NCBI GenBank assembly: GCA_038087875.1
Contig: CM075989.1
Coordinates: 20,338,001-20,402,000, forward strand
From: Malacoraja senta
Lineage: Eukaryota
DNA: 64,000 bases
Direction of reading: 5' to 3'
How positions within the stretch are numbered: position 1 is the first letter of the stretch; every line of letters begins with the position of its first letter. A program made the position numbers and the translations under genes. Shown one piece after another: positions 2,924 to 63,677 of this stretch. The notes below the pieces were generated by a model, which was given only the letters and a program-made list of their open reading frames with translations, did no database searches and had not been told where the DNA came from.

Positions 2924-4764
2924 GTGAGCAGTTATTTGATATCAATGCATTCTTTGGTGGCAATGCAATTTGTTTCATTATATTATATCATCACGTCAGC
3001 CTTTTTATTCTGTAAATATATCGTTATAACTTACTCAAACACTGATAGGTAAATCAAAGTGCTTTGAGCAATCGGAACAGTGATAAGACGAATTAAGTAA
3101 CGAGGTGGGAGGACAGATGTAAGAAGGGTCTCAGGATCAACTTTTTCACTCAGAGAGTATCCATATCTCAAATGAGCTGCCACAGGAAGCAACTATGTGG
3201 ATATAACTATTACTTTCAAAATACGTTTGAACAAATATATGGATAGCATCTATGGAGCGAAGGAATAGGTGACGTTTCAGGTCGAGATCCGAAACATCAC
3301 CTATTCCTTCGCTCCATAGATGCTGCCTCACCCGCTGAGTTTCTTCAGCATTTTTGTCTACTTTGATTTTTCCAGCATCTGCAGTTCTTTCTTAAATAAA
3401 TGGATAGGATGAGTTGAGAGGCCTGTGGGCCAAATGCAGGCAAATATGCCAATTTGGTCAGCATGGACAAAATGGATAAGAAAAGCCTGTTTCTATGTAC
3501 AGCTCTATCGCTCTATGAGTCCATAACTCAGCTAATTGATGAACACAATGTGAATATGTGTGCAAAGGAACTGCAGATGCTGGTTTAAACAAAAGATAGA
3601 CATAAAAAGCTGGAGTAACTCGGCGGGTCAGGCAGCATCTCTGGAGAGAAGGAATGGGTGACGTTTCGGAACGTCACCTATTCCTTTTCTCCACAATATG
3701 AATCTGGTCAGAAGATAAATGTGTACGCCTGTGAAGAGACTAGAATGGTGTTGGGATGGTGGCTACATAAGGTTGAATGCCCTGGTAAGTGAATAAATTT
3801 CAACCGGGCCTAATGAATGGCTTATGAAATAGCTAATGGTCTTCATTGTTCTAGAGTTCTAAATACGATTCTAAATACTGTTCTCTTTCATGTTCTTGTA
3901 TGATATCATAATATAGTGAAGTCACTATGGCAAGGAGAGTATTTTTTGATATGAATTATTCAAAAACATATTCACCCAACATGGATAAAATTTGTCGACG
4001 GTGTGATATTTTAGAAGTACAATAACACCTCTGCTTTTCTTCTCAAGGTCTTAACTATCAGGTAAGACCGAAAAATAAATGAGCTGAGATCCCAAAATCA
4101 AAAAGAATCTAACATCTTGAAAAGTATATGATTAATCAGTAACAAAAGATTGTAATAGTCATAGAGTCATGGAGTGATACAGCGTGGAAACAGAAGATAG
4201 ACACAAAATGCTGGAGTAACTCAACGGGACAGGCAGCATCTCTGGAGAGAAGGAATGGGTGACGTTTTAGGTCAAGACCCTTCTTCAGACTGGAAACAGG
4301 CCCTTCGGCCCAACTTGCCCACAATGACCAACATGTCCCAGCTACACTAGTCCCACCTGCCTATGTTTGGTGCATATCCCTCCAAACCTGACCTATCCAT
4401 GCACTTGCCTAGCTGTTTCTTAAACGTTGGGATAGTCCCTGCCTCAACCACCTCCTCTGGCAGCTTGTTCCATACACCCACCACCCTCTGTGTGAAAAAG
4501 ATTACCCCTCAGATTCCTATTAAATCTCTTCCCCTTCACGTTAAACCTATTTTAATTGTGATATTGAAAAGTTGAAAATAAAAATCTTCATGAGGGCTTA
4601 TAAAAAAGGAGAAAATTCATAGTCATGGAGATATACAGCACAGAATTTGGACTTTCTGCCCAGTGGGTCCCCACACATTCACACTACTTAGTACTGGCAA
4701 TGGTTTGGAAGAAAGAAACTGCAGATGCTGGTTTACACAAAAGGACACTGAATACTGGAGCAAC

Positions 4765-6058
4765 ATGGAAACATAGAAAAATTGAAAAATAGGTGCAAGA
4801 GTGGGTCATTCAAGACAACACCGTCATTTAAAATGATCATAGGCTGATCATCTAAAATCAGTACCCCGCTCATCCTTTTTCCCCATATCCCTTGTTTCCT
4901 TTAGCCCTAAGAGCAAAATCTATCTTTCGCTTGAAAAATCCCGTGAATTGGCCTCCACTGCCTTCTGTGGCTGAGAATTCCACAGATTCACAACTCACTG
5001 GATGAAAAAAAAATTCCTCATCTCAGTCCTAAATGGCCTCTACCCCTTATTCCTAAATTGTAACCCCTGGTTCTGGATTCACCCAACATGGGGAACCTTT
5101 TTCCTGCATCTAGCCTGTCCAATCCTTTAAGAATTTTATATGTTTCGATAAGATCCCCTCTCATACTTCTAAATTCCAGTGACTACAAGCCCAGTCGACC
5201 CATTCTTTCATCATACGTCAGTCCTGCCATCCCGGGAATTAACCTGGTGAACTTACACTGCACTCCCCCAATCGCAATAATGTCCTTCCTCAAATTAGGA
5301 GACCAAAATTGCACACAATACGCCTGGTGCAGTCTAGCCAGGGACCTGTACAACTGCAGTAGGACCTCCTTGCTCCTAAACTCAAATCCTCTCGCAATGA
5401 AGACCAACATGCCATTGGCTTTCTTCACTGCCTGCTGTACCTGCATGCTTACATTCAGTGACTGATGTACAACCACATCCAGGTCTCGTTGCACTTCCCC
5501 TTTTCCTAATCTGACACCATTCAGATAATAATCTGCCTTCCTGTTCCTGCCACCGAAGTGGATAACCTCACATTTATCCACATTATACTGCATCTGCCAT
5601 GCTTCTGCCCACTCACCCAACCTATCCAAGTCACCCTGCAGGTTCCTAGCATCCTCATCGCAGCTCACACTGCCACCCAGCTTTATGTCATCCGCAAACT
5701 GGGAGATGTCACATTTAATTCCCCCGTCTAAATCGTTAATATATATCGTAAATAACTGGGGTCCCAGCACCGAGACTTGCGGCACCCTACAAGTCACTGC
5801 CTGCCATTCTGAAAAGGACCCATTAATTCCTACTTTTTGCTTCCTGTCTGCCAACCAGTTCTGCTCTAATTTTGGACACTAATCTCTTGTGTGGGACCTT
5901 GTCAAAGGCTTTTTTGAAAGTCCAGATCCACCACATCCACTGGCTCTCCCTTATCTATTCTACTTGTTACATCCTCAAAAAATTCCAGAAGATTAGTCAA
6001 GCATGATTTCCCCTTCATAAATCCATGCTGACCTTGACCGATCCTTTCACTGCTTTCC
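4765..6058 (-). mobile_element. CR1 LINE 3' fragment (degenerate RT)
   Basis: ORF 5183-5854 with VPQ.SVLGPQLF, FADD and YCVQFWSP. Confidence 0.92.
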
Positions 6059-17233: not shown

Positions 17234-18208
17234 ATGAGTAAACTGTCTCCAGCTGTGAGCCCTCAGAGAGCAGTGAAAAAGCTGTTGAAAGACCAGAAGA
17301 AGTCTGAAGCAGAAGTTACTTCTGAAGTTACCTCTGAAGTCTCTGAAGTGGCTGCAGAAATGGATACAAGATCTAAGAAAGACTTTGATGACTTGAAGAA
17401 ATCAATGAAAAATTTGAAAGATGAGATTTCGGATAATATGAAGGAAGATAAGAAGGAAATGAAGGAAAATAGGATGGAAGATAAGAAGGAAATGAGGGAA
17501 AATACGGCAAAAATGATGGAAGGAATGGAGAAGATGATGAAGGATTTAAACGCTGGTAACCAGAAGAATATGATGGACTTACTGGACATTATGAATAAAC
17601 GAATTGATGAGGTGAAAGATGGACTATCAGAGAAAATGGATAAGATGGATGTAACTACTACGGATAAGTTCACGGTTGTGCTTGAAACAGTAGCTGCAAG
17701 TATGCACACAATTACGGAATTGGAGAAAAACACGGCTCGAGTGGTTGAAGACATGGCGAAACTGAGGCAAGAATATGAGCAAATGAGGCGAGAAAACGAA
17801 CAAGCTTCACTACAGATGGTGACTCAACTGGAGAAAGTCTCAGCCAAATGCCTGGACCTGGAAGCTCGCTCTAGACGCCAGAATTTGAGAATTCTTGGTG
17901 TTTCAGAGGGGGCAGAAGGGGAGCAGGTACGTGAATTTGCCATGGGCTTGTTGAAACAACTGTTGAATCTTTCCAAGGAACCGAAAATCGAAGTGGCTCA
18001 TCGTGTCCCAAGATTTAAACAAAGATCTGGTGCGGGAAAAGCTTATCCACGACATATTATTGTGAAATTTCGGGATACTGTAGAACTGGAATATGTTATG
18101 AGCAAAATCAAATACGGTGTACAACTGCGGATGGACAAGGACACTATTAAGATATTCAGGGACTACCCATTCAAATATGCCCAAACTATCGTTGAAAAAC
18201 AGAAATGA
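17234..18208 (+). CDS. L1 ORF1p (coiled coil plus RRM-like region; C-terminus appears truncated)
   Basis: Long K/E/M-rich coiled coil followed by DLEARSRRQNLRILGVSEGAE, AHRV and PRHIIVKF motifs typical of L1 ORF1. Confidence 0.9.
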   Translation: MSKLSPAVSPQRAVKKLLKDQKKSEAEVTSEVTSEVSEVAAEMDTRSKKDFDDLKKSMKNLKDEISDNMKEDKKEMKENRMEDKKEMRENTAKMMEGMEKMMKDLNAGNQKNMMDLLDIMNKRIDEVKDGLSEKMDKMDVTTTDKFTVVLETVAASMHTITELEKNTARVVEDMAKLRQEYEQMRRENEQASLQMVTQLEKVSAKCLDLEARSRRQNLRILGVSEGAEGEQVREFAMGLLKQLLNLSKEPKIEVAHRVPRFKQRSGAGKAYPRHIIVKFRDTVELEYVMSKIKYGVQLRMDKDTIKIFRDYPFKYAQTIVEKQK

Positions 18209-19019
18209 AAGGGAGTTTTGGCAGAACTGTACTATTCTAAGCAATGCTTTGTCTGGGGATAGTTACACTGTTATCTTTGGAATGTTGAATCAAGGACATT
18301 TTCTGTTCAAAACGTGTAAACAACTGAACAGTTGGAATATAAACCAGAAAATAATTGCTTATTGATTAAAATATTATAACCAATTGTAAGAACTTATCCT
18401 ATTAACAACTTAACAAGTTATGTAGGTTAGATTAGAATACTAACAAAAACAAAAATAAAAAATAATGAACTAACATACTAATATGAATTTTTAATAAATT
18501 GTAACCTTATCTATAAGTGGGAGGAGGGGATGAGAAACGAGCACCTGGCTTATGTCCAGGGGCACGTCTCGTTAACCCCTTCAACCAACAGTTGATTCTT
18601 ATTGAAGTCAAAAATATTGGTTTAATAATTAAACTCCGATATATATATATGTTATAAGGAAATATCAGGGTAAAATTGTATTATATATCTGAATGTGAGG
18701 CCTCGTTTTAATATTTTAATATGTTATGATTAACTAAGAGAGCGGAGCTATTTGTGTAACAACGCAATGGAAGTCAAAACAAGTTTTTTTCCCACCTACA
18801 GGTGGGACACTCGCTACAGTGCCGACTATATTAGACACTGTAGCCTCACTTTTTTAGGGTTTTTTTTACCACATAAAATCACTTGTTTGTGTTTTGTGTT
18901 TAGTGATAAGCGTAAAATGGACATACCAGCAAAATTTATTAATTCAAAAACTCCCCCAATACCTAAAGACCTGGGATATGGACGCACCACAAGATTCAAA
19001 GGTACTATAATTATTCAAA

Positions 19020-22000
19020 ATGCATGACACCACACAAAAGAACCTAGGAGGAATCTCATTTTGTAGTTGGAATATAAGAGGTATTAACGAACCTATTAAA
19101 AGGGGTAAGATACTAGCTCAGCTGAAACTGTACAACTCTGACATTACCTTCCTACAAGAAACACACCTAAAACCTCAGGATCAAGTTAGACTGAGGGCGA
19201 AATGGATAGGTCAAACATACCATTCTTCATTTACTTCAAAATCTAGAGGCACGTCAATCATGATAAGAAAAGGTATACCATTTAAAGCAAAGAATATTAT
19301 AACAGATATAGAAGGGAGATACCTAATAGTTAATGGAGAAATCCATGACACTCCACTTACTTTGGTAAATATATATGCCCCTAACTTTGATAACCCCCAC
19401 TTTTTCAATAAAATTTTCAACATAATTGCAGAGTCAAACTATCAAAATGTTATAATAGGAGGAGACTTTAACTGTGTTTTAGACCCGTACCTAGATAAAT
19501 CAAGTCAAAAACAGAGAGGGAATATGAAATCGAAAACTGGGGAACTCCTCAATACCTATATAAATAACACTAATATAGCAGATGTTTGGAGAATTGTTGA
19601 TCCAACTGGCAGGGAATATTCGTTTTACTCAATGGTACATAAGACATACTCACGTATAGACTACTTTCTGCTGGATACAAAATTAATCCCCCAAACATCT
19701 AATGCAATATACCATACAAATTCAATTTCAGACCATTCCCCACTAACTTTCTTTTTAAAACTGGAAGGATTGTCTAAGAATAAATCGTTCTGGAGATTTT
19801 AAAGCATACATTAGGGGTATTATAATTTCATATCAAGCTTTTCAAAATAAAAAGAATAAGAATGAACAAAGACAGTTAGAAGAACTTATTAGACAAATGG
19901 ATATAGATAATGCTAAAGATCCATCAATAGATAAACATAATAAAATAATAATTTTAAAATTTAAATTAAATAAATTATTATCTGCCAAACTTATAAGACT
20001 TTTTCAAATTACAAAACAAGAGCACTTTGAATTTGGGGATAAACCGCATAAACTTTTGGCTCGCCAGCTAAAAAAACGAGAAAAGGAACATACTATACCA
20101 AAGATCAAATCAGATAAAGGGGAATTATTAACAACACCGAAGGATATTAATAAAAGATTTGCGCAATTTTACAAGAATTTGTATACATCTAAAACGATAA
20201 TTGATTCCGATAATATCACAAAGTTCTTGGATACCTGTAATCTTCCAAAGTTAGAGCTGAAGGAACAAGAGGAACTGGGTGCACAAATCTCAATTAAGGA
20301 ATTAGAAGATACAATAAACTCATTAAAGAATGGAAAAACACCAGGCCCTGATGGATTTACTAATGAATTTTATAAAAGCTTTTATGATAAACTAATACCA
20401 AGATTACAAAAAATGTACCAATACGCTTTTAAAAAACGAATACTACCTGATACATTAGCGGAATCAACGATTACATTAATACCTAAGAAAAATAAAGATC
20501 TAGAAGAACCTGGTTCATATAGAGCTATAGCATTGTTAAACACAGATCAAAAAATATTAGCGAAAACATTAGCTAGAAGATTAAGTAAATACATTAGTAA
20601 ATTAATAAACCCAGATCAGACAGGGTTTATCCCTAAGAGATACTCTTCTAATAATATGAGATGTCTACTCAACATAATGCACTCACACAAATCTGAAGAT
20701 CAAGAATTATCAATTATTTCGCTGGATGCTGAAAAAGCATTTGATCAAGTAGAATGGAATTATATGGATAAAGTATTACAAAAATTTCAACTGGGAGAGA
20801 ATTTTATTTTATGGATTAAGTTACTATATAATAAACCTACAGCTAGAATACTAACTAATAACATATTATCCTCGAAATTTCAACTATCAAGGGGAAATAG
20901 ACAAGGATGCTCATTATCACCACAGCTGTTTGCTCTCATTATTGAACCGCTAGCAGAAAAAATTAGAATACACCCTGATATTCATGGATATAATACTAAA
21001 GACTCATATAATAAAATATCTTTATACGCGGATGATATATTACTGTATATAACAAAACCTCAAATTACTATACCAAATATATTAAATTTAATTGAACACT
21101 TTGGATCTTTTTCTGGATATAGAATAAATTGGAATAAAAGTGAAATTATGTCAATAAAACCGAAAGATTCAACACATCTTTTAAAATTCCCTTTTAAAAT
21201 AGCTACAGAAAAATTTAAATATTTGGGAATCAAAATTACCAGAACATATCAAGGTATGTTCAGGGCAAATTTTGACCCCCTACTTAATAAATTAAATACA
21301 CTAATTAAATTCTGGAAAACGCTCCCGATGTCTTTAATAGGCCGAATAAACGCAATAAAAATGATCTTTTTACCACAAATTTTATACCTATTTCAATCAA
21401 TTCCTATATACTTACCTAAGAAGTTTTTTAAAAAACTCGACTCAGATATCACTAATTTTATATGGGACTATAAATCACATAGAATACAAAAAACTCATCT
21501 GAATAAACCTAAAGTATTGGGGGGTTTAGCACTACCTAATTTTATGTATTATTATTGGTCAGTAAATATTAAAAACATGATTCAACTGATGGATAACTCC
21601 GCCCAGCAAGTAGACTGGATTGTAATGGAGAAAGAGGATTGCTCCTCTAGAAACATTGGAGCGATCCTCCTCTCTCCAATGAAACTGAATAACATAAATT
21701 ATAATAAGAACCCAATTATTCATAGTACAATCCGTATTTGGAAACAAATAAAACAAAATTTAAAATTAAGAAATTTATCACTTTTATTACCTATAGTCAA
21801 TAACCCTTCGTTTAGTCCTTCTATTATAGATAAAGCTTATACACAATGGGATAGACTAGGAATTAAAACGCTGGTGACTTGTATGAAACTGGAAAATTAC
21901 TTTCATTTCAACAATTACAAATAAAATATAAACTCGGAAATAATCAATATTTTAAATATTTTCAAATATGCGACTATTTGAAAAAATATACAAAAGATCA

Positions 22001-22694
22001 TTATAATAACCCAGTAGATGTATTGGACGAGGCAATGCAGATAAAAGCGGAATCAGCAAACTTAATATCATATTTGTATAATATTATTTTAAATGTACAA
22101 ATACCACCTACGGAGGGTATCAGAAGAGACTGGGAACAAGAGTTAGCTATTAAAATTTCAAAGGAAAGTTGGAATGAATACTTATTAAACGTGCATAAAT
22201 GCTCGATTAATGTAAGACACACTTTAATACAATTTAAAATTTTACATAGATTATATTATTCGAAAACTAAAATTCATAAAATTTTCCCAAACGTATCATC
22301 TATTTGTGATAAATGTCAATCCCAAGAAGCTACTATAGCGCACTCATTCGTCTTCTGTACAAAAATTCAAAAATTTTGGAATGAAATTTTTGAAATCTTT
22401 ACAAAGTTATTTAAAACAAGACTGATACCCAAAGCAGAATGGATTATCTTCGGAATAACGGAAGATGATCCAGAACTAAATGTGTTTCAAAAGAAATTAA
22501 TGGACTATGGGTTAATAACTGGAAAAAAGCTAATTCTAAAATTTTGGAAGAAGGCTCCAATACCAACTATAAATATGTGGATTTCAAATATGTTTGAAAC
22601 ATTACACCTAGAAGAGATAAGACTCCTCCTAGCAGGTAAACCAGATCACTTCCACCTGACGTGGTCTGCATTTATAGAATTATTACAAACATAG
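19020..22694 (+). pseudogene. L1 ORF2 (endonuclease/reverse transcriptase) broken into three ORFs
   Basis: EN motifs SWNIRG, LQETH, GGDFN, SRIDY and SDH in 19020-19802. RT motifs PGPDG, DAEKAFD, RQGCSLSP and YADD in 19897-21924. CDKC..H...C in 21879-22694. Breaks near 19800 and 21875. Confidence 0.93.
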
Positions 22695-27922: not shown

Positions 27923-29080
27923 ATTCAAGAGATTCAAGAGAGTTTATTGTCATGTGTCCCAGATAGGACAATGAAATTATTGCTTTGCTTCAACACAACA
28001 GAACATAGTAGGCATGAATACAGAACAGATCAGTGTGTCCATATACCCTTATATATATATATATATACACACATGAATAAATAAACAGATAAAGTGCAAA
28101 TAAACAGATAATAGTCTATTAATGTTCAGAGTTTTGTTTCAGTTGAGTTTAATAACCTGATGGCTGTGGGGAAGTAGCTATTCCTGAACCTGGACGTTGC
28201 AGTCCTCAGGCTCATGTATCTTCTACCTGAAGGTAGCAGGGAGATGAGTGTGTGGCCAGGATGGTGAGGGTCCTTGATGATGCTGCCAGCCTTTTTGAGG
28301 CAGCGACTGCGATAGATCCCATCGATTGTAGTGGAGGTCAGAGCCGATGATGAACTGGGCAGTGTTTACTACTTTTTGTAGTCTTTTCTGCTCCTGGGCG
28401 CTCAAGTTGCCGAACCAAGCCACGATGCAACTGGTCAGCATGCTCTCTACTGTGCACCTATAGAAGTTCGAGAGAGTCCTCCTTGACAAACCGACTCTCC
28501 GTAATCTTCTCAGCAAGTAGAGGCGCTGATGTGCTTACTTTATAATTGCATCAGTGTTCTCGGACCAGGAGAGATCTTCAGAAATATGCACGCCCAGGAA
28601 TTTGAAGCTCTTGACCCTCTCCACCATCGACCCGTTGATATAAACGGGACTGTGGGTCCCCATCCTACCCCTTCCAAAGTCCACAATCAGTTCCTTGGTT
28701 TTGCTGGTGTTGAGGGCCAGGTTATTGTGCTGGCACCATTTGGTCAGTCGGTCGATCTCTCTTCTATACTCCGACTCGTCCCCATCAGTGATACGTCTCA
28801 CAACAGTGGTGTCGTCAGCGAACTTGATGATGGAGTTCGCACTATGACCGGCTACGCAGTCATGAGTATAGAGTGAGTACAGCAGGGGGCTGAGCACGCA
28901 GCCTTGAGGTGCTCCTGTGCTGATTGTTATCGAGGCTGACACATTTCCACCAATATGAACAGTCTGTGGTCTGTGGATGAGGAAGTCGAGGATCCAATCG
29001 CAGAGGGATGCGCAGAGACCCAGATCTGAAAGCTTGGTAACCAGCTTGGAGGGGATGATTGTATTAAATGCCGAGCTGTA
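27923..29080 (-). mobile_element. Rex1/Babar-type LINE 3' fragment
   Basis: Encodes [21 protein letters not shown]...KFADDTTVV...KTKELIVDF. Has a (TCTTGAATC)-type tail preceded by AATAAA on the minus strand. Confidence 0.85.
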
Positions 29081-29241
29081 AACAACAGTGGCCAGGGTGC
29101 GATTTATAAGGGAATCTTCGATGGCTTGCGTGCAGTTCCGGAGAGTGTCTCTGCAAATAAGTAAGTGGCCTCAGTTGTGAAAAAAAGGTAGGGAGGAGTT
29201 AATTTGTAACAGATTGCTATTGTTTTCTCTACTGTGTGCAG

Positions 29242-29348
29242 AGATGGAGCTCTGGAGTCTGAATTCTCTGCACCCAGTGAAATTAATGTAAAGGGGAGCA
29301 GTCACAATAGCTATTCAAGTGAGATCTCCTTCAAGCCCACGGGTAAAG
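29242..29348 (+). CDS. CATSPER2: CATSPER2 Ser-rich C-terminal linker exon
   Basis: tgtgcag acceptor. Open frame DGALESEFSAPSEINVKGSSHNSYSSEISFKPTGK. 107 nt bridges phase 2 to phase 1 exactly. Donor AAG|GTAAGC. Confidence 0.75.
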
Positions 29349-29552
29349 GTAAGCAGAAACATTCAGCTTAATGAAAACAAATTTTAAACATCGATTGTTT
29401 TTACAACTTTCAAAATGCACTAACATAATCTGTAAAAGTTTTTTAGGGATTGTTTTTTTTCCATTTATAGTTTAGTTTAGTTTATTGACACGTGAACTGA
29501 TGTACAGTGAAAATCTTTTGTTGTGTGCTAACCAGTCAGCAGAAAGACAATA

Positions 29553-30790
29553 CAGATGCTCCCTGAATTACGGTGCTTGGACTTAAGATATTTCGACATT
29601 ACGATCGGCAAACGCTTGGCAACAGCAGCGAGCCGCACGTCACTTCCAGCCACGTGATCGCAATGTATTAAATGCGTTTTTGACTCACGATATTTTCGAT
29701 TTACATAGAAACATAGAAACATAGAAAATAGGTGCAGGAGTAGGCCATTCGGCCCTTCGAGCCTGCACCGCCATTCAATATGATCATGGCTGATCATCCA
29801 ACTCAGTATCCTGTACCTGCCTTCTCTCCATACCCCCTGATCCCTCTTAAATATAGCCAATGAACTGGCCTCAACTACCTTCTGTGGCAGAGAATTCCAG
29901 AGATTCACCACTCTCTGTGTGAAAAATGTTTTTCTCATCTCGGTCCTAAAAGATTTCCCCTTTATCCTTAAACTGTGACCCCTTGTTCTGGACTTCCTCA
30001 ACACCGGGAACAATCTTCCTGCATCTAGCCTGTCCAACCCCTTAAGAATTTTGTACGTTTCTATAAGATCCCTCCTCAATCTTCTAAATTCTAGCGAGTA
30101 CAAGCCGAGTCTATCCAGTCTTTTTTCATATGAAAGTCCTGACATCCCAGGAATCAGTCTGGTGAACCTTCTCTGTACTCCCTCTATGGCAAGAATGTCT
30201 TTCCTCAGATTAGGAGACCAAAACTGTATGCAATACTCCAGGTGTGGTCTCACCAAGACCCTGTACAACTGCAGTAGAACCTCCCTGCTCCTATACTCAA
30301 ATCCTTTTGCTATGAATGCTAACATATCATTCGCTTTCTTCACTGCCTGCTGCACCTGCATGCCTACTTTCAATGACCGGTGTACCATGACACCCAGGTC
30401 TCGTTGCATCTCCCCTTTTCCTAATCGGCCACTATTCAGATAATAGTCTAGTTTCCTGTTTTTGCCACCAAAGTGGATAACTTCACATTTATCCACATTA
30501 TACTGCATCTGCCATGCATTTGCCCACTCACCCAGCCTATCCAAGTCACCTTGCAGCCTCCCAGCATCCTCCTCACAGCTAACACTGCCCCCCAGCTTTG
30601 TGTCATCCGCAAACTTGGAGATGTTGCATTCAATTCCCTCGTCCAAATCATTAATATATATTGTAAATAGCTGGGGTCCCAGCACTGAGCCTTGCGGTAC
30701 CCCACTAGTCACTGCCTGCCATTCTGAAAAGGACCCGATTTACGATGGGTTTATCGGAACGTAGCCCAATCGTAGGTCGCAGAGCAGCTG
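29553..30790. mobile_element. Tc1/mariner (Tigger-like) MITE interrupted by CR1
   Basis: TA|CAGATGCTCCCTGAATTACG...CGTAGGTCGCAGAGCAGCTG|TA, i.e. imperfect TIRs with a TA duplication. Confidence 0.75.
29705..30735 (-). mobile_element. Young 5'-truncated CR1 LINE
   Basis: Uninterrupted RT C-half (SGVPQGSVLGP, KFADD) and a (TTTCTATG)n tail. Flanked by 8-bp CGATTTAC (29697-29704 and 30736-30743). Confidence 0.95.
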
Positions 30791-34857: not shown

Positions 34858-34984
34858 TTCTTCTTGTGTATGGCGTGCACAGCCTAAAGTTGTAGGTCAA
34901 TTTGTTCTATTTGTTTGTGCACATCGGGTTAATTGCATTAGTTGAAACAGGGTGGACCATGTGAAGGTTGCAATCTCCCACCCC
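34858..34984 (-). mobile_element. Second copy of the ribozyme-headed short retroelement
   Basis: Colinear with 62433-62570 and has the same 5' nucleotide. Tail GGCTGTGCACGCCATACACAAGAAGAA. Only a degenerate flanking repeat (..AGAAGT). Confidence 0.75.
34931..34984 (-). ncRNA. Minimal HDV-like ribozyme, copy 1
   Basis: Minus strand reads GGGGUGG GA GAUUGCA ACC UUCACAU GGU CCACCCU GUUUCAA CUAA UGCAAUU. 7-bp P1 with G1-U wobble, 7-bp P2, 3-bp P3. Confidence 0.8.
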
Positions 34985-35912: not shown

Positions 35913-36446
35913 GGGAGGGAGGGAGGGGAGGTGGTAATTAAACCAAGAAACTACTGACTGAACAAAATTACTGATTGAGCCAAGGGTGGGGGGGGGGGGG
36001 GTTGGGGCAGGTAGATAAATTAAAAGCTTTTGGAGAAGAGAAGCTGTCAGCATTAATCATTGGTAGACAAAAATGCTGGAGAAACTCAGCGGGTGCGGCA
36101 GCATCTATAGAGCGAAGGAAATTTTTTTGAGGGATATGATATGTATGTATTTCCTTCGCTCCATAGATGCTGCTGCACCCGCTGAGTTTCTCCAGCATTT
36201 TTGTCTACCTTCGATTTTCCAGCATCTGCAGTTCCTTCTTGAGCATTCTTGGTCCTCCAAAATATTCCAAATGGAATTTAAACTGGAATTTAAACTAAGA
36301 GCATTAATCATTGGGCGTGTAGGGAGGAACTGTAGATGCTGGTTTAAACCGAAGAGGATACAAAGCTGGAGTAACTCAGTGGGCCAGGCAGCATCTCTGG
36401 AGAGAAGGAATGGGTCATGTTTCAGGTGGAGACCCTTCCATCAGAC

Positions 36447-36615
36447 ATTGGGCACTGGGACATTGGCCCAGGGACTACAACTCCCACAATGCCCCGCGGG
36501 GCCAGACCAATCAGAGCGTGCCGTGCTGGTGTCGTCAGAGATCCCGGCGGACCATTGGCGACGGAGGACGAATCAGGAGCGGCGTTGGGACGATGCGCGG
36601 CAGCGTTACCGTTCG
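36447..36615 (+). promoter_or_regulatory. LRRC28 promoter and probable non-coding first exon
   Basis: CpG-rich patch. ZNF143/THAP11-type motif ACTACAACTCCCACAATGC at 36474-36492. CCAAT at 36507-36511 and ATTGG at 36447, 36462 and 36554. Donor TCG|GTGAGG at 36616. The ATG-bearing exon downstream has an acceptor, so an upstream exon is required. Confidence 0.75.
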
Positions 36616-36653
36616 GTGAGGCCAACGTTGTTTTAAAATGTCTCCCGTCGTCT

Positions 36654-36760
36654 TTGTGTGTGTGTGTGTGTATGTGGTCTGTGTGTGTCTGTGTGTGTGT
36701 GTGTGTGTATGTGGTCTGTGTGTGTCTGTGTGCGTGGTCTGTGTGAGTGGTCTGTGTGAG
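36654..36760. repeat. Imperfect (GT)n microsatellite
   Basis: Visible GT-rich tandem run. Confidence 0.9.
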
Positions 36761-36855
36761 GGTGAAGGGGCTGTGGCCGCTGGGGAGGCGGGCGGGTGGG
36801 AGCCGCGGTCCCGAGTGATGAATGTGGCTGAGCAGCCCCTCACACCGGCCCCCTC

Positions 36856-38699
36856 TGCAGCCAGCTGTGCGCCCACCAGTGCAGCCAGCTGTGCGTCCAC
36901 CAGTGCAGCCAGCTGTGCGTGTTCAACAGTGCAGCCAGCTGTGCGTCCACCAGTGCAGCCAGCTGTGCGTGTTCAACAGTGCAGCCAGCTGTGCGTCCAC
37001 CAGTGCAGCCAGCTGTGCGTGTTCAACAGTGCAGCCAGCTGTGCGTTCACTAGTGCAGCCAGCTGTGCGTGTTCAACAGTGCAGCCAGCTGTGCGTCCAC
37101 CAGTGCAGCCAGCTGTGCGTCCACCAGTGCAGCCAGCTGTGCGTGTTCACCAATGCAGCCAGCTGTGCGTCCACCAGTGCAGCCAGCTGTGCGTCCACCA
37201 GTGCAGCCAGCTGTGCGCCCACCAGTGCAGCCAGCTGTGCGCCCACCAGTGCAGCCAGCTGTGCGTCCACCAGTGCAGCCAGCTGTGCGTCCACCAGTGC
37301 AGCCAGCTGTGCGTGTTCAACAGTGCAGCCAGCTGTGCGTCCACCAGTGCAGCCAGCTGTGCGTCCACCAGTGCAGCCAGCTGTTTGTCCACCAGTGCAG
37401 CCAGCTGTTTGTCCACCAGTGCGGCCAGCTGTGTGTCCACCAGTGCAGCCAGCTGTGCGTGTTCAACTGCAGCCAGCTGTGCGTTCACCAGTGCAGCCAG
37501 CTGTACGTCCACCAGTGCAGCCAGCTGTGCGTCCACCAGTGCAGCCAGCTGTGCGTGTTCAACAGTGCAGCCAGCTGTGCGTCCACCAGTGCAGCCAGCT
37601 GTGCGTCCACCAGGGCAGCCAGCTGTGCGTCCACCAGTGCAGCCAGCTGTGTGTCCACCAGTGCAGCCAGCTGTGCGCCCACCAGTGCAGCCAGCTGTGC
37701 GTGTTCAACTGCAGCCAGCTGTGCGTTCACCAGTGCAGCCAGCTGTACGTCCACCAGTGCAGCCAGCTGTGCGTCCACCAGTGCAGCCAGCTGTGCGTCC
37801 ACCAGTGCAGCCAGCTGTGCGTGTTCAACAGTGCAGCCAGCTGTGCGTTCACCAGTACAGCCAGCTGTGCGTGTTCAACAGTGCAGCCAGCTGTGCGTTC
37901 ACCAGTGCAGCCAGCTGTGCGTCCACCAGTGCAGCCAGCTGTGCGTGTCCACCAGTGCAGCCAGCTGTGCGTCCATCAGTGCAGCCAGCTGTGCGTCCAT
38001 CAGTGCAGCCAGCTGTGCGTGTTCAACAGTGCAGCCAGCTGTTTGTCCACCAGTGCAGCCAGCTGTGCGTCCACCAGTGCAGCCAGCTGTGCGTTCACCA
38101 AGGCAGCCAGCTGTGCGTCCACCAGTGCAGCCAGCTGTGCGTCCACCAGTGCAGCCAGCTGTGCGTCCATCAGTGCAGCCAGCTGTGCGTCCATCAGTGC
38201 AGCCAGCTGTGCGTCACCAGTGCAGCCAGCTGTGCGTCCATCAGTGCAGCCAGCTGTGCGTCCATCAGTGCAGCCAGCTGTGCGTCCACCAGTGCAGCCA
38301 GCTGTGCGTCCACCAGTGCAGCCAGCTGTGCGTCCATCAGTGCAGCCAGCTGTGCGTCCACCAGTGCAGCCAGCTGTGCGTCCACCAGTGCAGCCAGCTG
38401 TGCGTTCACCAAGGCAGCCAGCTGTGCGTCCACCAGTGCAGCCAGCTGTGCGTCCACCAGTGCAGCCAGCTGTGCGTCCATCAGTGCAGCCAGCTGTGCG
38501 TCCCTCAGTGCAGCAGTGTGCGTCCCATCAGTGCAGCCAGCTGTGCGTTCACCAGTGCAGCCAGCTGTGCGTCCACCAGTGCAGCCAGCTGTGCGTCCAT
38601 CAGTGCAGCCAGCTGTGTGTCCATCAGTGCAGCCAGCTGTGCGTTCACCAGTGCAGCCAGCTGTGCGTTTACCAATGCAGCCAGTTGTCAGTTCACCAG
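36856..38699. repeat. Minisatellite, ~24-nt unit GTGCAGCCAGCTGTGCGTCCACCA, roughly 75 copies
   Basis: Direct tandem repeats with 23-26-nt variants; copy number estimated from array length. Orphan units at ~39086-39145. Confidence 0.98.
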
Positions 38700-40592
38700 A
38701 GACTGACACAAAATGTTGGAGTAACTCACTCTGGGCCACTGCTGCTGTCTGTTCATGAATGCATAAGGTCATAAGTGATAAGAGCAGAATTAGGCCATTT
38801 GGCCCATCTGGTCTACTCTGCCATTCAATCATGGCTGATCCTCCTAACCCCATTCTCCTGTCTTCTCCCATAACACCTGACACCCCATATTAATCAAGAA
38901 TCTATCTATTTCTGCTTTAAAAATATCCACCGACTTGGCCTCCACAACCTTCTGTGGCAATGAATTCTACAGATTCACCTCCCTCTGACTAAATAAATTC
39001 CTTCTCATCTCCTTCCTAACGGAACGTCCTTTAATTCTGAGCTATGACCTCTAGTGGATACATCCACTCCGCATCCATTCTATCCAAGCCAGCTGTGTGT
39101 TCACCAATGCAGCCAGCTGTGTGTTCACCAATGCAGCCAGCTGTTTCTCCCACTAGGTTCACTGTCCTCATTAATTTTACTGATTGTGTGCCTCCTTGTC
39201 ACCTAACCCCTCAGCTAACAATGAACCATAGAAAGACACAAAAGCTGGAGTAACTCAGCGAGACAGGTGGCAAGGAATGGGTGACGTTTTGGGTCGAGAC
39301 CATTCTTTGATGAATCATTCAAAATTCCTTATGTCTGCTTTGATCTGATGTTTTCTCACCTTATCTCTAGACTCCCTCTCCCCTGACTGAAGAAGGATCT
39401 CGACTCCAAGTCACCCATTTCTTCTCTCCAGAGATGCTGCTGTCCCGCTGAGTTACTCCATCATTTTCTGTCGATCTTTTTTGTCTGTTCATCAATGCAG
39501 ACAGTGCACCTTGTACAAAGCAAGGAACTGCAGATGGACACAAAATGCTGAGTAACTCCGTGGGTCAGGCAGCATCTCTGGAGAACGTGGAGATGTGATG
39601 TTTCCAATTCGAGACCCTTTTCCAAATAATGCACCGTATTCTCTCAGCAGATTATAGCAGCTGCCTTTTCTCAACTCATCCATGCCGACCACCTAAGCCA
39701 GTCCCATTTGCTTACATTTGCACCATATCTCTCTAAAATGTTCCTATCCATGTACCTGTTAAAATGTCTTTTACGTTCTCCTTATTGGGGACCTTTGCGC
39801 CATCTTCATTTGGACTTCAGTGTTATATCTTTGCACTACATCTTGTATCCTTTATCTGTGCACTGTTTTAAAGGCTTGACTGTATTCATGTATAGTCTTT
39901 TCTGGTTAGCACACAAACAAAATATTTTCACGGTACCCCAGTACACATGACAATAATAAACGGAACTAAATGTTATTTTACATACCTTAAATATCTCTGG
40001 CATCTCGTCAAAAGTACATCACTGACTACATGTGCTCTGTCCGAATGGAAATTTGAAATGCTAACATAGCAGCAGGATTTATTTCTAAATATATAGAATT
40101 CTACAATAGTTGCATTAGACATGTCCCACCGTGGGGTTTCGTTCTTCTCCCTGCTCCTGTTCGGCAGAAGGCACAGGAGCTTGAAAGCACACACAGTGAG
40201 ACTTTGGAATAGCATCTCCCTTCTGTTATCAGGCTCCTTAAATGTCTTTCCATAAGCCAGGGTACTGCCCGATTCATCTCTACCCCATTGAGGACGTTGG
40301 ACTTTGTCTGGGGATCTGATACGCTACAATGCTGAGAACTATGGGTGGGGTGAGAATAGGAGGGGGTGAATGGTGTCCATTATTACCGATTGTCCACTAT
40401 GACCGAGTAGGATTCGCTCCAACCGCCCCAACAATAAACAATTGTAATTGTTTATTGTAACTAAACAATTTCTTTCCATTATTGTGTTTGGTTAATGTTG
40501 GAGAATTGCAAAAGGTTTTCTTCGAATAACCTAAGGCTGAATTTCTTTTTCTAAAGAAACCATGGATGTATGATGAAGTGACCTCTGTTTAA

Positions 40593-51480: not shown

Positions 51481-52205
51481 ACTGACTCTAAAAGCTTCTT
51501 TAGATATGTAAAAAGGAAATCTCTTACAATCAGAGACAGGTGATATTTTTAAAGGGAAACGAAGAAATGGCAGAACAGTTAAACAAGTACTTTGTTTCTG
51601 TCTTCACTAAGGAAGACGCAAACAATCTCCCAGAAATACTGGGGGACCGAGGATCTAGTGGGAAGGAGTAACTGAAGGGAATCCTCATCAGTCAGGAAAT
51701 AGTGTTAGGTAAACTGTTGGGACTGAAGGCAGATAAATCCCCAGGGCCTGATGGTTTGCATGCCAGATTACTCAAGGAGGCGGCCCTAGAAATCGTGGAT
51801 GCATTGGCGATAATTTTCCAATGTTCTCTCGACTCTGGATCAGTTCCTGTGGACTGGAGAGTAGCCAATATGACCCCACTTTTTAAGAAAGGAGGGAGAG
51901 AGAAAACGGGGAGTTATAGACCAGTTAGCCTTACATCGGTAGTGGGGAAGATGCTTGAGTTGATTGTTAAAGATGTTATAGCAGCGCATTTGGAAAGCAG
52001 CGGCAGGATCGGTCAAAGTCAGCATGGATTTATGAAGGGGAAATCATGCTTGACTAATCTTCTGGAATTTTTTGAGGATGTAACAAGTAGAATGGACAAG
52101 GGAGAGCCAGTGGATGTGGTGTATCTGGACTTTCAAAAAGCCTTTGACTGTGTCCCACACAAGAGATTAGTGTGCAAAATTAGAGCACATGGTATTAGGG
52201 GTAGG
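51481..52205 (+). mobile_element. CR1 LINE internal fragment (RT N-half)
   Basis: Contains KSPGPDG, YRPVSLTS, QHGFMKGKSCLTNL and YLDFQKAFD. Confidence 0.92.
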
Positions 52206-53746
52206 GCCTGCAGCTCATTTTATAAAATTTATATCTACCTATTTTCTTGTAAAGTATTTACTTTTCGCCTTTTGCACATAAATGCTTACAAGCTCATTTA
52301 AATGTTTGTATTGTTTCCAAACTGGTCAAAGCCAACATCGTGACAATTGCATTTTTAGCCATTGTCCTTTCCTAAGTTAGTGCTTTGCTGTGGATAGGTT
52401 ATTGTTTCTTCGAACAAAAAAGATTGATTTTAAAATGTTAGAGTTAACATGAGAATGGCCCATAAACCAATGATGCATGTAATTAATTTTAAACGTGGTT
52501 ACTTTTATATTTATGTTTCTGAGGTCCAGGAAGATTGTCCTATCCTGAAATAAATTTTGAAATTTGGAAAGATGTTCAATTCTCTGGTAATACAGAATGG
52601 AGTGTTTCATTTTAGTTGCAAAATATACCGCGGCAGATTGCAGTGATGCAAACTGACCTTGTTATCCACTTGAGTTTCATATGATGCATTTATCCTGTTC
52701 TGGAGTTCTTCTACACAATCAGACTTCCTGAGAATCATAAACAGACTTCCACTTCTTTTGCCTGCAGATCATTCAGTGAATAGAATAACATCCTTTCAGC
52801 AGTGGTGCATCTGATAGCAACGGAAATGGGGCCTGAATGTAGTTTTGGTGCCTTTGTTTCTCACACACACAGACAATCATTTTAATGAATCTGTTTTTTC
52901 CCTTTTTCAGTGTGTTACATTTTTCATATTCCCTGAACTGTAATGTTTCATCTGCCCGTGTAAGTGAAAAAAATGGTGTAATTATTTGTCAAGCATATTG
53001 TTTATTGAATGGGAACTTGGTATTGAATATTATTTAGATTTACTTATCGTGTAAAAATGCAGCAGCCTATTGGTGATCTTAATAGCTAAACTCTCATTGC
53101 TCAAGGAAATGTTGAAAGCAAAAAAGTAAAATTTTTGCACGTATAATCTTTCCTCTGACTGGATAGCAGGTAACAAAAAAGCTTTTCACTGTACCTCGGT
53201 AAACGTGACAGAAGACTAAACTAAACTAACAAATTCCTCTTTGAATTCCTTCCAGTCCGAATCCGTCAATGTGTTTTTTTTTTGTTTCTGGTTAGATTAC
53301 TGGTGTATTCTACCTCCCCTTTCCCCAATAATGCCTTGGTCCACCTCACTGAATTCTGGAAAGGCTGTGGAAACCAAATGTCATTCATCGAGTTTGTTGG
53401 TTGATTCTAAATTAAATGGGTTGCGAGTGTGGAGGAGGATTTTAAAAGGATTCAAGAGGATAAGGACCAGCTGATTGAGTGGATGAGAAGACTGGAATAA
53501 AATGCAGAAAAACATGAGAACATAGCAGAAAGGACCTAGGGGTGCGTGTGCACACGTCGGTGAATGCCAGAGTGTAGGTACAAGTGAATAAGAGGACTAT
53601 GGGATATTAACCTTGATTACAAGTAGGTTTGCTTACAGTAGTAAGGAAGTCTTACTGCAATTTGATAAAAACCTGAGACTGTATCTGAAGTATTGCGTGA
53701 AGTTCTGATTTCCTTAGCCAAGAATGTACTTGCCATAAAGTAAGTG

Positions 53747-61960: not shown

Positions 61961-62152
61961 TGTCAGAATGAACTGCAGATGCTGGTAAAATCGAAGGTAG
62001 ACACAAGACGCTGGAGTAACTCAGCGGGTGAGGCAGCATCTATGGAGAGAAGGAATGGGCGACGTTTCGGGTCGAGACCGAAAACGACGCCCATTCCTTC
62101 TCTCCATAGATGCTGCCTCACCCGTTGAGTTACTCCAGCATTTTGTGCCTAC
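61961..62152. mobile_element. Penelope-derived inverted-repeat insertion
   Basis: Long hairpin of the same family. 15-bp TSD CTTTAGTTACTAGTT (61946-61960 and 62153-62167). Confidence 0.75.
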
Positions 62153-62432
62153 CTTTAGTTACTAGTTAATCTATTGGAAGACTTCTTCAAAACCTGGATT
62201 GGCCATTGTTCATGCATAGCATCCGCTTGAGATTCTTGAGCAATTGCTTCAGGCAATCCATAGTATAAATAAGATCACTCATCTTATTCAATTTATTGAA
62301 CAGGTCTTCTAGATCAATTGTTTCTCCCCTACCATACGTTAGTGTGTTTTACTATCACTATCCTCTTGTTTGGGAAATCTGCCAATGAACATGGAAGATC
62401 TCATCTCTAAGTGAACATCGTGTACCATGATC

Positions 62433-62570
62433 TTCTTTGACTTTTGTGTGGCGTGCACAGCCTAAAGTTGTTGGACAACTTGTTCTATTTGACCTTCCGT
62501 TTGTGCACGTCGAGTTGATTGCATTAGTCGAAACAGGGCAGACCAAGTGAAAGTTGCAATCTTCCACCCC
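62433..62570 (-). mobile_element. Short non-autonomous retroelement with ribozyme head and RTE-like tail
   Basis: Flanked by the 13-bp direct repeat GTGTACCATGATC (62420-62432 and 62571-62583). 3' end GGCTGTGCACGCCA..AAAGAA. Homologous to 34858-34984. Confidence 0.8.
62517..62570 (-). ncRNA. Minimal HDV-like ribozyme, copy 2
   Basis: Minus strand reads GGGGUGG AA GAUUGCA ACU UUCACUU GGU CUGCCCU GUUUCGA CUAA UGCAAUC. This parses as P1, P2, P3, L3, P3', P1', reduced P4, J4/2 with catalytic C, and P2'. Confidence 0.8.
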
Positions 62571-63677
62571 GTGTACCATGATCATTTTGTTCCTGTAAAT
62601 GAAAAATGGCCTTCTCTCTCCCTTTAGTTTTGCTGTCATTAACTGGATCCTACAATATTGGAGCAATTACAATTCATTTTCTGACGCTACTAATGCAGTG
62701 CCATCAGTAATGTTATCACTGTTCCTTTCAGGTTGTGTACAAGATAAGAATCCAGACAACCCCCATGTTACATTGAATTAATTTAATTCACATATAAATA
62801 GTTTCTAAAATAAAGCATTCGCTGAGAGCCACTATTATTTTGTGATTTTTCTTTTTGTTTTAGACATCTAATAGTTTCTACAAAGTTGAGGCGCGCGAGA
62901 TTGCAGGTGTTGGAATCTGTGCATAAAAAAGGAGAGCAGCTGGAGGAACTCAACGGGCCAGGCAGCATCTGTGGAGAAAAATGAACAGTCAACGTTTCTC
63001 CACAGATGCTGCTTGGCACATTTTGCCCTTTATTGAGAACAGACTATCGCATATTAGTCCTTGGGAACCGTCAAACAGCATGTAATTTACATCACACGTT
63101 GAACTGGTGTTAATTTTTCATTTTGATGTCTTCATAATGTTTATTCTGTATGTAGAATCTTTCATCCATATTGCGACTCAAATTGCTATTTAATATTTGG
63201 TTTTGACAAGATATTAGTGAAGCACTTTGGTCCAATTTTATTCTCTGATATTATGAAATAATGTTTACTCCCTAATGTCTACTCCACCATTCAATAAAAT
63301 GACTGATCTTTTCCCTCCCCTCTAATTCCCCGCACTAACCTAAAAATACCAGTTTTGATGTTAATAGTTAGAATCAATGGTTTATTTATAGACAAAAAGA
63401 TGACATTATGCATATCAAATAAAAAATAAACATTTATAAACAATCGTTTTCTATCAATACGCTAATATGTGGCAAATGCAGGAAAATGATTAGCGTGGAT
63501 AAATAGTTTGTCAAAATGGATGAAAATGGCTTAATAGCGTGTTTCTGCGCTGTGTGACTCTCTATGAAGAGTATCAAGTCTTTGAAGTTGGCTTCATTAC
63601 TTTCAAAAGAGTAACCATTTCACCAGTAGGCAATTCAATTGGAAAGATTCTTTCAGCAAGTTCCCAAACAAGGTATC

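Follow-up and report, generated by a model that had tools for sequence, protein, structure and literature searches.

A 138-base mobile element on the minus strand of the window (the whole 64,000-nt stretch of DNA analysed here), at positions 62433–62570, probably consists of a self-cutting RNA of the HDV/CPEB3 type joined to the tail of an RTE-like LINE. The full account that we favour, and consider likely, is that this is a bipartite deletion derivative of a ~3.2-kb RTE-like LINE with a P4-less ribozyme as its head, which would be transcribed by read-through, cleaved at G1 and mobilised in trans. The design is known and rarely documented; its noteworthy parts here are the P4-less CPEB3-like core and the CPEB3-family ribozyme found on a related LINE.

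Organisation of the element

The element is flanked by two copies of the same 13-nt target-site duplication (TSD), GATCATGGTACAC (62571–62583 and 62420–62432, minus strand). As originally predicted, this duplication is perfect, and it lies flush with G1 on one side (62583–62571) and with the end of the A/G-rich tail on the other (62432–62420).

The first 54 nt (62517–62570) constitute the HDV/CPEB3-like ribozyme candidate, an assignment drawn from the reading of its helices, a descriptor search and covariation. Reading the minus strand from 62570, GGGGTGG (62564–62570) forms P1 with CTGCCCT (62535–62541) over 7 pairs, 3 of which are wobbles (G1-U, U5-G and G6-U). After the AA of J1/2 (62562–62563), GATTGCA (62555–62561) forms the 7 perfect pairs of P2 with TGCAATC (62517–62523), while ACT (62552–62554) and GGT (62542–62544) supply the 3 pairs of P3 (ACU/GGU, 1 wobble) on either side of the 7-nt L3, TTCACTT (62545–62551), which begins UUC in the RNA. 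The 3′ strand of P1 is followed by the G of P1.1 (62534), a 6-nt linker, TTTCGA, at the P4 position (62528–62533) and a J4/2 of CTAA (CUAA; 62524–62527) whose putative catalytic C is 62527. These letters are identical to those given in the original prediction, and the order of P1, P2, P3, L3, P1.1 G and J4/2 proposed there is wholly present on direct reading of the window copy.

The ribozyme candidate is followed, on the evidence of a match to a LINE copy (L127), by a continuation of the LINE 5′ UTR (element nt 55–72; 62499–62516, minus strand), which holds the 5′ strand of a closing stem, CGTGCACA (62502–62509). A middle stretch of ~27 nt (nt 73–99; 62472–62498, minus strand) includes the 5′ arm of a small hairpin and matched none of the LINE pieces compared. 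The remainder (nt 100–138; 62433–62471, minus strand) corresponds to the LINE 3′ end, comprising the last LINE codons CTA CAA CTT, the stop TAG, a ~20-nt 3′ UTR in which the 3′ strand of the stem lies (TGTGCACG, 62452–62459) and, after it, a decayed (GAA)n tail (62433–62445) that is cleaner in other copies. The predicted 3′ stem and inner hairpin were recovered in the minimum-energy fold (CGTGCACA/TGTGCACG, or more fully CGUGCACA/UGUGCACG). At 138 nt, the element is too short for a protein-coding ORF.

A second, older family copy is present in the window at 34863–34984 (minus strand), with 83 % identity over element nt 1–130 and a U5-A pair in place of U5-G in P1.

Putative ribozyme at the 5′ end

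The head displays the order of an HDV-like nested double pseudoknot, P1-J1/2-P2-P3-L3-P3′-P1′-P1.1-P4-J4/2-P2′, in all parts apart from P4. That helix is absent in the family, where the 6-nt UUUCGA lies between P1.1 and J4/2, in keeping with the earlier description of a P4 reduced to a UUCG turn. The G1-U at the base of P1 is present in all eight sequences compared, and G1 is also the first base of the insertions. J4/2 reads CTAA, CGAA or CAAA across subfamilies, such that the putative catalytic C is constant. The P1.1 pair C22-G37 was likewise found in 8/8 sequences; as it never varies, its invariance says nothing more. We therefore describe the head as a candidate minimal P4-less HDV-like ribozyme with a CPEB3-type core.

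Judged by the predicted pairings, the HDV-like fold suits the family majority better than the window copy. The latter has ACT for ACC in P3, TTCACTT for TTCACGT in L3 and CTG for CCG in P1, three departures that are later changes; the commonest family ribozyme has P3 ACC/GGT, L3 TTCACGT and a P1 3′ strand of CCGCCCT or CCACCCT.

Rfam did not recover the predicted ribozyme in the window copy, as scans at E≤10 over 1,001 and 171 bases returned no HDV-type match. A consensus-like copy (L008), of which 80 nt were scanned against 4,227 Rfam families at E≤10, matched only two families, both HDV: RF02682 HDV-F-prausnitzii (16 bits, E value 0.29, below the gathering score of 44) and RF00094 HDV_ribozyme (14.8 bits, E value 2.3, below the gathering score of 50). 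These E values are multiplied by the number of families and would thus be far smaller for a hypothesis that named the HDV families beforehand. Both alignments run the whole length of the model: G1 falls on the first position of P1, the helices P1 and P3 are paired, P4 is deleted, and the J4/2 C aligns with the C of the model GCuAA. RF00622 (CPEB3) gave no match to this copy at E≤10.

A strict HDV-type descriptor written for this analysis did match the window copy, as the original prediction would have it. Over 891,098 scanned bases it returned three matches, namely the two window copies and L156, a metagenome locus whose ribozyme is verified by Rfam; over 263,556 × 2 bases of other loci of the same genome, it returned 70 family copies and nothing else. 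In about 1.4 Mb, there were thus 0 matches outside the family and L156. The ribozyme-like arrangement in the window element is more than chance.

Folding of the 3′ domain was variable. The fold of the whole window copy did not differ from that of shuffled sequences (z −0.13), a value that is uninformative on account of the pseudoknot. The LINE 5′ UTR and 3′ UTR strands CGTGCACA and TGTGCACG are complementary over 8 bp (element nt 58–69 and 112–122), and an abundant subfamily has a stem of 11 bp through two diagnostic changes (CGAC to TGGC). The 3′ domain of a copy from this 11-bp stem subfamily (L069:349–432) gave z −3.71, a value reached by 0/200 shuffles; two other copies gave −1.46 and −0.15.

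Family size and position of the 5′ ends

The genome searched was a 1.94-Gb assembly of 6,182 contigs. It is a chordate genome, in that Chordata is the phylum met most often among the nearest Atlas clusters of an L1-type reverse transcriptase from the window. Exact matches to a 21-nt ribozyme core numbered 5,666 genome-wide and those to a 21-nt tail motif 4,748, the reversed control returning 0 in each case. A first look found 1,861 candidates for the window element, the 40 scored ones (40/40) being 94–100 % identical, and 3,318 candidates for the older window copy, which copies match at 89–94 %. Identical flanks were seen on different contigs or at nearby places (L036-L039, L054-L058, L014/L015, L016/L017, L101/L102, L105/L106 and L117/L118); such copies represent segmental duplications or uncollapsed haplotigs, so the copy counts are slightly inflated.

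The prediction that 5′ ends pile up at G1 was borne out by four kinds of observation. Firstly, 28 of the 30 best matches start with GGGGTGG after unrelated upstream DNA and have visible TSDs, the other two differing in the first 1–2 bases. Secondly, we examined a sample chosen independently of the head, with the tail as its sole anchor. It comprised the first 60 of the 4,748 tail-motif places, among which three pairs with common flanks represent duplicated loci. The head was present to within 1–2 nt of G1 in 55/60; three were 5′-truncated (L064 by 6 nt, L086 and L082) and two were LINE 3′ ends (L061 and L065). No sequence upstream of G1 was common to the copies in this sample, which is contrary to what would be expected had the element routinely extended 5′ of G1. 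One of the two LINE 3′ ends (L065, which is L122:7876–7905) has only the last ~30 nt of the tail in common with the LINE and unrelated sequence upstream; it may be another tail-using element.

Thirdly, among 44 copies with both a head match and an exact TSD of at least 8 nt, the TSD ended within −3 to +2 of G1 in 40, the offset being 0 in 15, +1 in 13, +2 in 1 and −1 to −3 in 11. The +1 offsets are ambiguous because the TSD ends in G in those cases, and one of the four outliers is a spurious 8-mer. TSDs in the family are variable in length (8–14 nt), and insertions occur genome-wide.

Finally, contigs from four public runs match only inside the element and break at G1 with dissimilar flanks, with 23, 30 (plus 8 one base earlier), 119 and 1 loose contig ends at G1, respectively. 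Near-identical copies of the element were found in 23 runs, which belong to 12 studies and carry eight coded organism labels. All 23 consist of contigs, which cannot show RNA ends, and one is surely RNA; in this RNA-library run two contigs match the element, and one of them extends 85 nt upstream of G1 into unrelated flank. In runs X7 and X8, compared with L008:1401–1740, contigs pass from element position 67 to position 1 again (a step back of 68), which suggests a partial head directly before a full element, in a tandem or nested arrangement.

The partner LINE and the origin of the short element

The original prediction held that an autonomous LINE should share the 3′ end of the element. Such a partner was found: a LINE of ~3.2 kb that has domains for an endonuclease and a reverse transcriptase and of which no intact copy was seen. 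It begins with the same 54-nt ribozyme candidate and ends with the same ~35-nt tail and (GAA)n. Two tail-motif places run upstream into other sequence. At L121, the ORF before the tail ends ...AWMSTLDLQL, its stop TAG lies within the common tail (CAA CTT TAG GCTGTGCACGCC...) and the LINE 3′ UTR occupies ~20 nt before (GAA)n. The LINE 3′ region taken from this locus gave 522 candidates, the scored copies being 91–94 % identical. A scan for LINE tails based on (GAA)n across 250 kb of loci returned only family copies and four unrelated sites.

Most LINE copies are 5′-truncated, and L123, L124, L125 and L126 are 5′-truncated or interrupted. A copy with a 5′ end (L127, G000:C1:194035600-194039100) carries at positions 1282–1346 a match to element nt 8–72 at 91 % identity, followed by an ATG at 1381, 106 nt after the G1 position, and its frames match Exo_endo_phos_2 (4e-8) and RVT_1 (1e-25). 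The LINE-specific 5′ region gave 31 candidates genome-wide. We compared 14 LINE 5′ ends, made up of that of L127 and those of 13 of the 31 candidates (matched from query base 1, with obvious inversions and very short matches set aside). G1 or G2 is reached by four of them (L134, L136, L129 and L138). In another eight, a truncation or rearrangement falls within ribozyme nt 5–20, and the last two are truncated further in; none (0/14) extends past G1.

The short element, as read from these alignments, is an internally deleted ('bipartite') derivative, made of LINE nt 1–72, the last ~35–40 nt and (GAA)n; its middle ~27 nt (nt 73–99) had no match among the LINE pieces compared. Because the LINE starts with the same ribozyme candidate, the short element is an internal-deletion derivative and not a fusion of unrelated modules. 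The earlier picture of a ribozyme fused to an RTE-like 3′ end consequently stands as regards the borrowed LINE tail (~35–40 nt) and falls as regards a foreign fusion, nt 1–72 being the 5′ end of the same LINE. In line with the definition of bipartite elements and SIDEs, the 3′ end is that of the parent LINE (~35–40 nt, within which the LINE stop codon falls, and (GAA)n), TSDs are present and there is no ORF. Some variants (L101, L102 and L116) keep the LINE 5′ UTR up to the start codon and then pass into the tail.

These findings bear on whether the element could be a conventional pol III SINE, in which a LINE tail follows a head derived from a small RNA. In favour of this are its SINE-like size and copy number and the LINE origin of its tail. 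However, the head is the partner LINE's own 5′ end, which contradicts this reading, and the predicted absence of a tRNA-type head held, with ARAGORN detecting no tRNA and Rfam returning no tRNA, 5S or 7SL match at E≤10. A classical pol III SINE identity was therefore rejected, given the lack of a tRNA/5S/7SL-derived head and the evidence of the LINE 5′ ends, and we regard it as extremely improbable.

The relatives of the LINE protein are ~1,000 aa long with endonuclease and RT domains and lie on 3.1–3.6-kb contigs, the best (P0002) being 1,019 aa with 72 % identity. RTE elements are described as 3.2–3.9 kb in length, with one ~1,000-aa ORF encoding an AP endonuclease and RT, and a very short 3′ UTR that ends in AT-rich short repeats (PMC1291365). 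The partner LINE corresponds to this architecture in its domains, the size of its relatives, and its ~20-nt 3′ UTR followed by (GAA)n. The term RTE-like used in the original prediction is thus apt as a description of architecture, and it is in this architectural, not phylogenetic, sense that we apply it to the LINE.

An intact ORF of ~1,000 aa was not seen for the partner LINE among the 2 × 150 places listed by protein searches, in which the longest open frames were 449–490 aa, making current activity doubtful. This brings up a reading in which both the element and the LINE are dead and the HDV-like fold is either a remnant in decay or a coincidence, the 54 nt never having cleaved for want of P4. 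Besides the failure to find an intact LINE ORF among the places listed, the divergence of the copies (LINE copies match the query copy at 91–94 % and older short copies match the second window copy at 89–94 %) and the whole-element fold (z −0.13) point in this direction. Set against them are the strict descriptor, which over about 1.4 Mb matched nothing but the family and L156, the thousands of insertions that begin at G1, the unchanged core of at least three subfamilies, and the published description of P4-less ribozymes as 'minimal drzs' (PMC10879173). A relic or chance fold is, in our estimation, very unlikely.

Covariation and a CPEB3-type ribozyme on a related LINE

The comparison was extended to 80 metagenome loci that encode proteins related to that of the LINE. 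A degenerate RTE-like LINE on one metagenome contig (L156:3606–3689, plus strand) matches RF00622 'Mammalian CPEB3 ribozyme' with 55.6 bits (gathering score 35, E value 4e-12), and the match ends ~24 nt before the inferred start of the LINE ORF. Its P1, P2 and P3 match the CPEB3 consensus, with L3 UCCACGU and J4/2 CUAA. L174:3789–3890 is a copy of this LINE that is 5′-truncated inside the ribozyme. An Rfam scan of 18 related loci at the gathering score matched in L156 only. A relaxed descriptor, applied to the region before the ORF in 19 metagenome loci of related LINEs (one without a usable region), matched only in L156 and L160; the latter, a related LINE, has an HDV-like candidate at 3796–3865 (plus strand) with L3 UCCACGU, J4/2 CGAA and a 9-bp P2, which ends 7 nt before the ORF and in which A stands in place of G as the first paired base of P1.

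Pairs were counted over seven family copies and L156, L160 being left out as it gave no consistent MAFFT alignment. The helices P1, P2 and P3 covary between the family and the L156 ribozyme, as predicted, with a double-sided change in 10/18 pairs, and 99.3 % of the 144 cells in the eight sequences are paired. In contrast, slid controls were 26–44 % paired with 0–1 double changes, and 0/500 shuffles reached the observed pairing values. The L3, G1·U, P1.1 and J4/2 C positions stay fixed between the family and L156, save for the L156 L3, UCCACGU. As this covariation in effect compares two lineages, and the structure was read from the same sequences, it constitutes good, not overwhelming, evidence.

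Variation within the family was also considered. Three subfamilies differ at three places within the 54 nt: the first J1/2 base (A/G), the partner of U5 (G/A, paired either way) and the second J4/2 base (T/G/A). The density of variants was taken from an alignment of 101 copies (two biased samples and an unbiased one, with duplicate flanks dropped), counting variants common to at least 12 %. The five variant positions in the ribozyme (5/54) are all unpaired or pair-preserving, and the density of variants, against 16/~76 elsewhere in the element, is only weakly lower (Fisher p 0.09). We regard the apparently lower density in the ribozyme as suggestive only.

Together, these observations bear on an alternative in which the first 54 nt act mainly as an internal pol II promoter or a protein-binding element of the 5′ UTR, with G1 as the transcription start and with no, or only secondary, cleavage. 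The sharp 5′ end would be explained equally well by transcription starting at G1, the 77 nt of L1Tc are both a promoter and a ribozyme (PMC3383444), and the missing P4 and the sub-threshold Rfam scores fit a promoter too. A promoter, however, needs no complementarity in P1, P2 and P3; all the defining HDV features bar P4 are present and kept across subfamilies, and a related LINE (L156) has an above-threshold CPEB3-family ribozyme at the same place, with compensatory changes in its helices. We therefore judge a mainly promoter or protein-binding role unlikely and prefer that of a ribozyme.

Proposed mechanism

With a ribozyme at its head, the element could propagate as follows. Having no promoter of its own, it would be transcribed within longer host or neighbouring transcripts, from which the ribozyme would cut just 5′ of G1 to give an RNA that begins exactly with the first base of the element. 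The LINE reverse transcriptase would then recognise the 3′ end and copy this RNA in trans by target-primed reverse transcription, and insertion at the new site, primed at the target nick, would generate the 8–14-bp target-site duplications. We infer this sequence of read-through transcription, cleavage 5′ of G1 and reverse transcription in trans because the ribozymes of R2, RTE and L1Tc behave in this manner in PMC6765202 and PMC5786205.

Comparison with known systems

Both the element type and its link to 5′ ribozymes are already in print. 'Bipartite nonautonomous LINEs' have been named in the RTE, Ingi, Vingi and R2 clades, and a 5′ ribozyme has been proposed as the reason why the 5′ end is kept (PMC5786205). 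The MAR4_MD, RTESINE2 and WALLSI3 elements (Kojima 2018, PMC5786205) are similar to the window element in comprising only the 5′ and 3′ ends of a LINE, with an internal deletion, no ORF and dependence on the LINE. They differ in being marsupial and longer, with no ribozyme shown for them in the parts of that paper drawn on here, and in that the 5′ part kept by the window element is little more than the helix-mapped ribozyme candidate.

R2 SIDEs and NARTc are described as ribozyme-headed deletion derivatives of their LINEs (PMC6765202). Drosophila R2 SIDEs (PMC3414825, PMC6765202) likewise have a 5′ HDV-like ribozyme, a 3′ end that binds the RT and no ORF, and are cut from a co-transcript and copied in trans by the parent. 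However, R2 is specific to 28S rDNA and has a restriction-like endonuclease, whereas insertions of the window family, flanked by variable TSDs, are spread across the genome, and the endonuclease of its parent is of the AP type. L1Tc and NARTc of T. cruzi (PMC3185411, PMC3383444) are an autonomous LINE and a truncated partner with a common HDV-like ribozyme in their first 77 nt, a clear likeness to the system described here; unlike the window family in both clade and host, they belong to the ingi/L1Tc clade of a protist, and their 77 nt also serve as a promoter. The 5′ HDV-like ribozymes of RTE and other LINEs (Ruminski et al. 2011, via PMC6765202 and PMC5786205) are similar in setting the 5′ end of promoter-less, read-through RTEs, and the use of HDV-like ribozymes by some non-autonomous SINEs is noted in PMC6765202, citing the same study.

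The mammalian CPEB3 ribozyme (RF00622) and the family agree in L3 (UUCACGU), the ends of P1 (GGGG...CCCU), the G after P1 and a J4/2 of C-N-A-A. They differ in P2, P3 and half of P1; moreover, the family ribozyme has no P4 and sits in a repeat and not in the CPEB3 intron. In minimal P4-less HDV-like ribozymes (PMC10879173), a short linker replaces P4, as in the family. Those ribozymes come from metagenomes and phages, and their origin and role are stated there to be unknown, whereas those of the family lie at the 5′ end of an animal retroelement.

Other features of the window

A near-perfect hairpin of ~120 nt is present at 62014–62134 (both strands), and plant miRNA models match it below threshold (MIR2118, 50 bits, gathering score 85). 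Similar sequence recurs in the flanks of other loci of the same genome, such as L082, L121:7200–7280 and L130, so it is an interspersed repeat and not a miRNA gene. An AT-rich L1-type LINE at 17234–22694 (plus strand) shows, in consecutive frames, a weak RBD-like match in ORF1, an AP endonuclease (2e-18), RVT_1 (1e-39) and a weak zf-RVT. Further RT fragments lie at 5183–5878 (minus strand), 28535–30739 (minus strand) and 51672–52301 (plus strand). The region 36067–38889 is GC-rich (0.59 GC at 36–38 kb) and has long overlapping open frames on both strands, with only a faint match to a PT repeat.

Implications

Two observations, the agreement of the family L3 with the CPEB3 consensus and the presence of a CPEB3-family ribozyme at the head of a related LINE, make it possible to test whether the mammalian CPEB3 ribozyme arose from a retrotransposon. 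A literature search over a limited library found no stated link between the CPEB3 ribozyme and an RTE-type LINE. We put forward tentatively, and with less confidence than doubt, a bolder proposal: that the mammalian CPEB3 intronic ribozyme may be the exapted 5′ end of an RTE-like LINE lineage with CPEB3-type ribozymes, and that a 54-nt P4-less ribozyme may suffice as the sole 'start signal' of an animal retroelement with >5,000 copies.

The family supports the published idea that 5′ ribozymes explain the bipartite non-autonomous elements derived from RTE, Ingi and R2 LINEs, and it offers a P4-less HDV-like ribozyme candidate with a known biological setting. Repeat annotation of this genome should include both the family and its LINE, and the compactness of the element makes it a candidate for use in self-processing RNA cassettes. 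In this natural case, a ribozyme of ~54 nt and a LINE tail of ~40 nt seem sufficient for a retroelement to multiply into thousands of copies.
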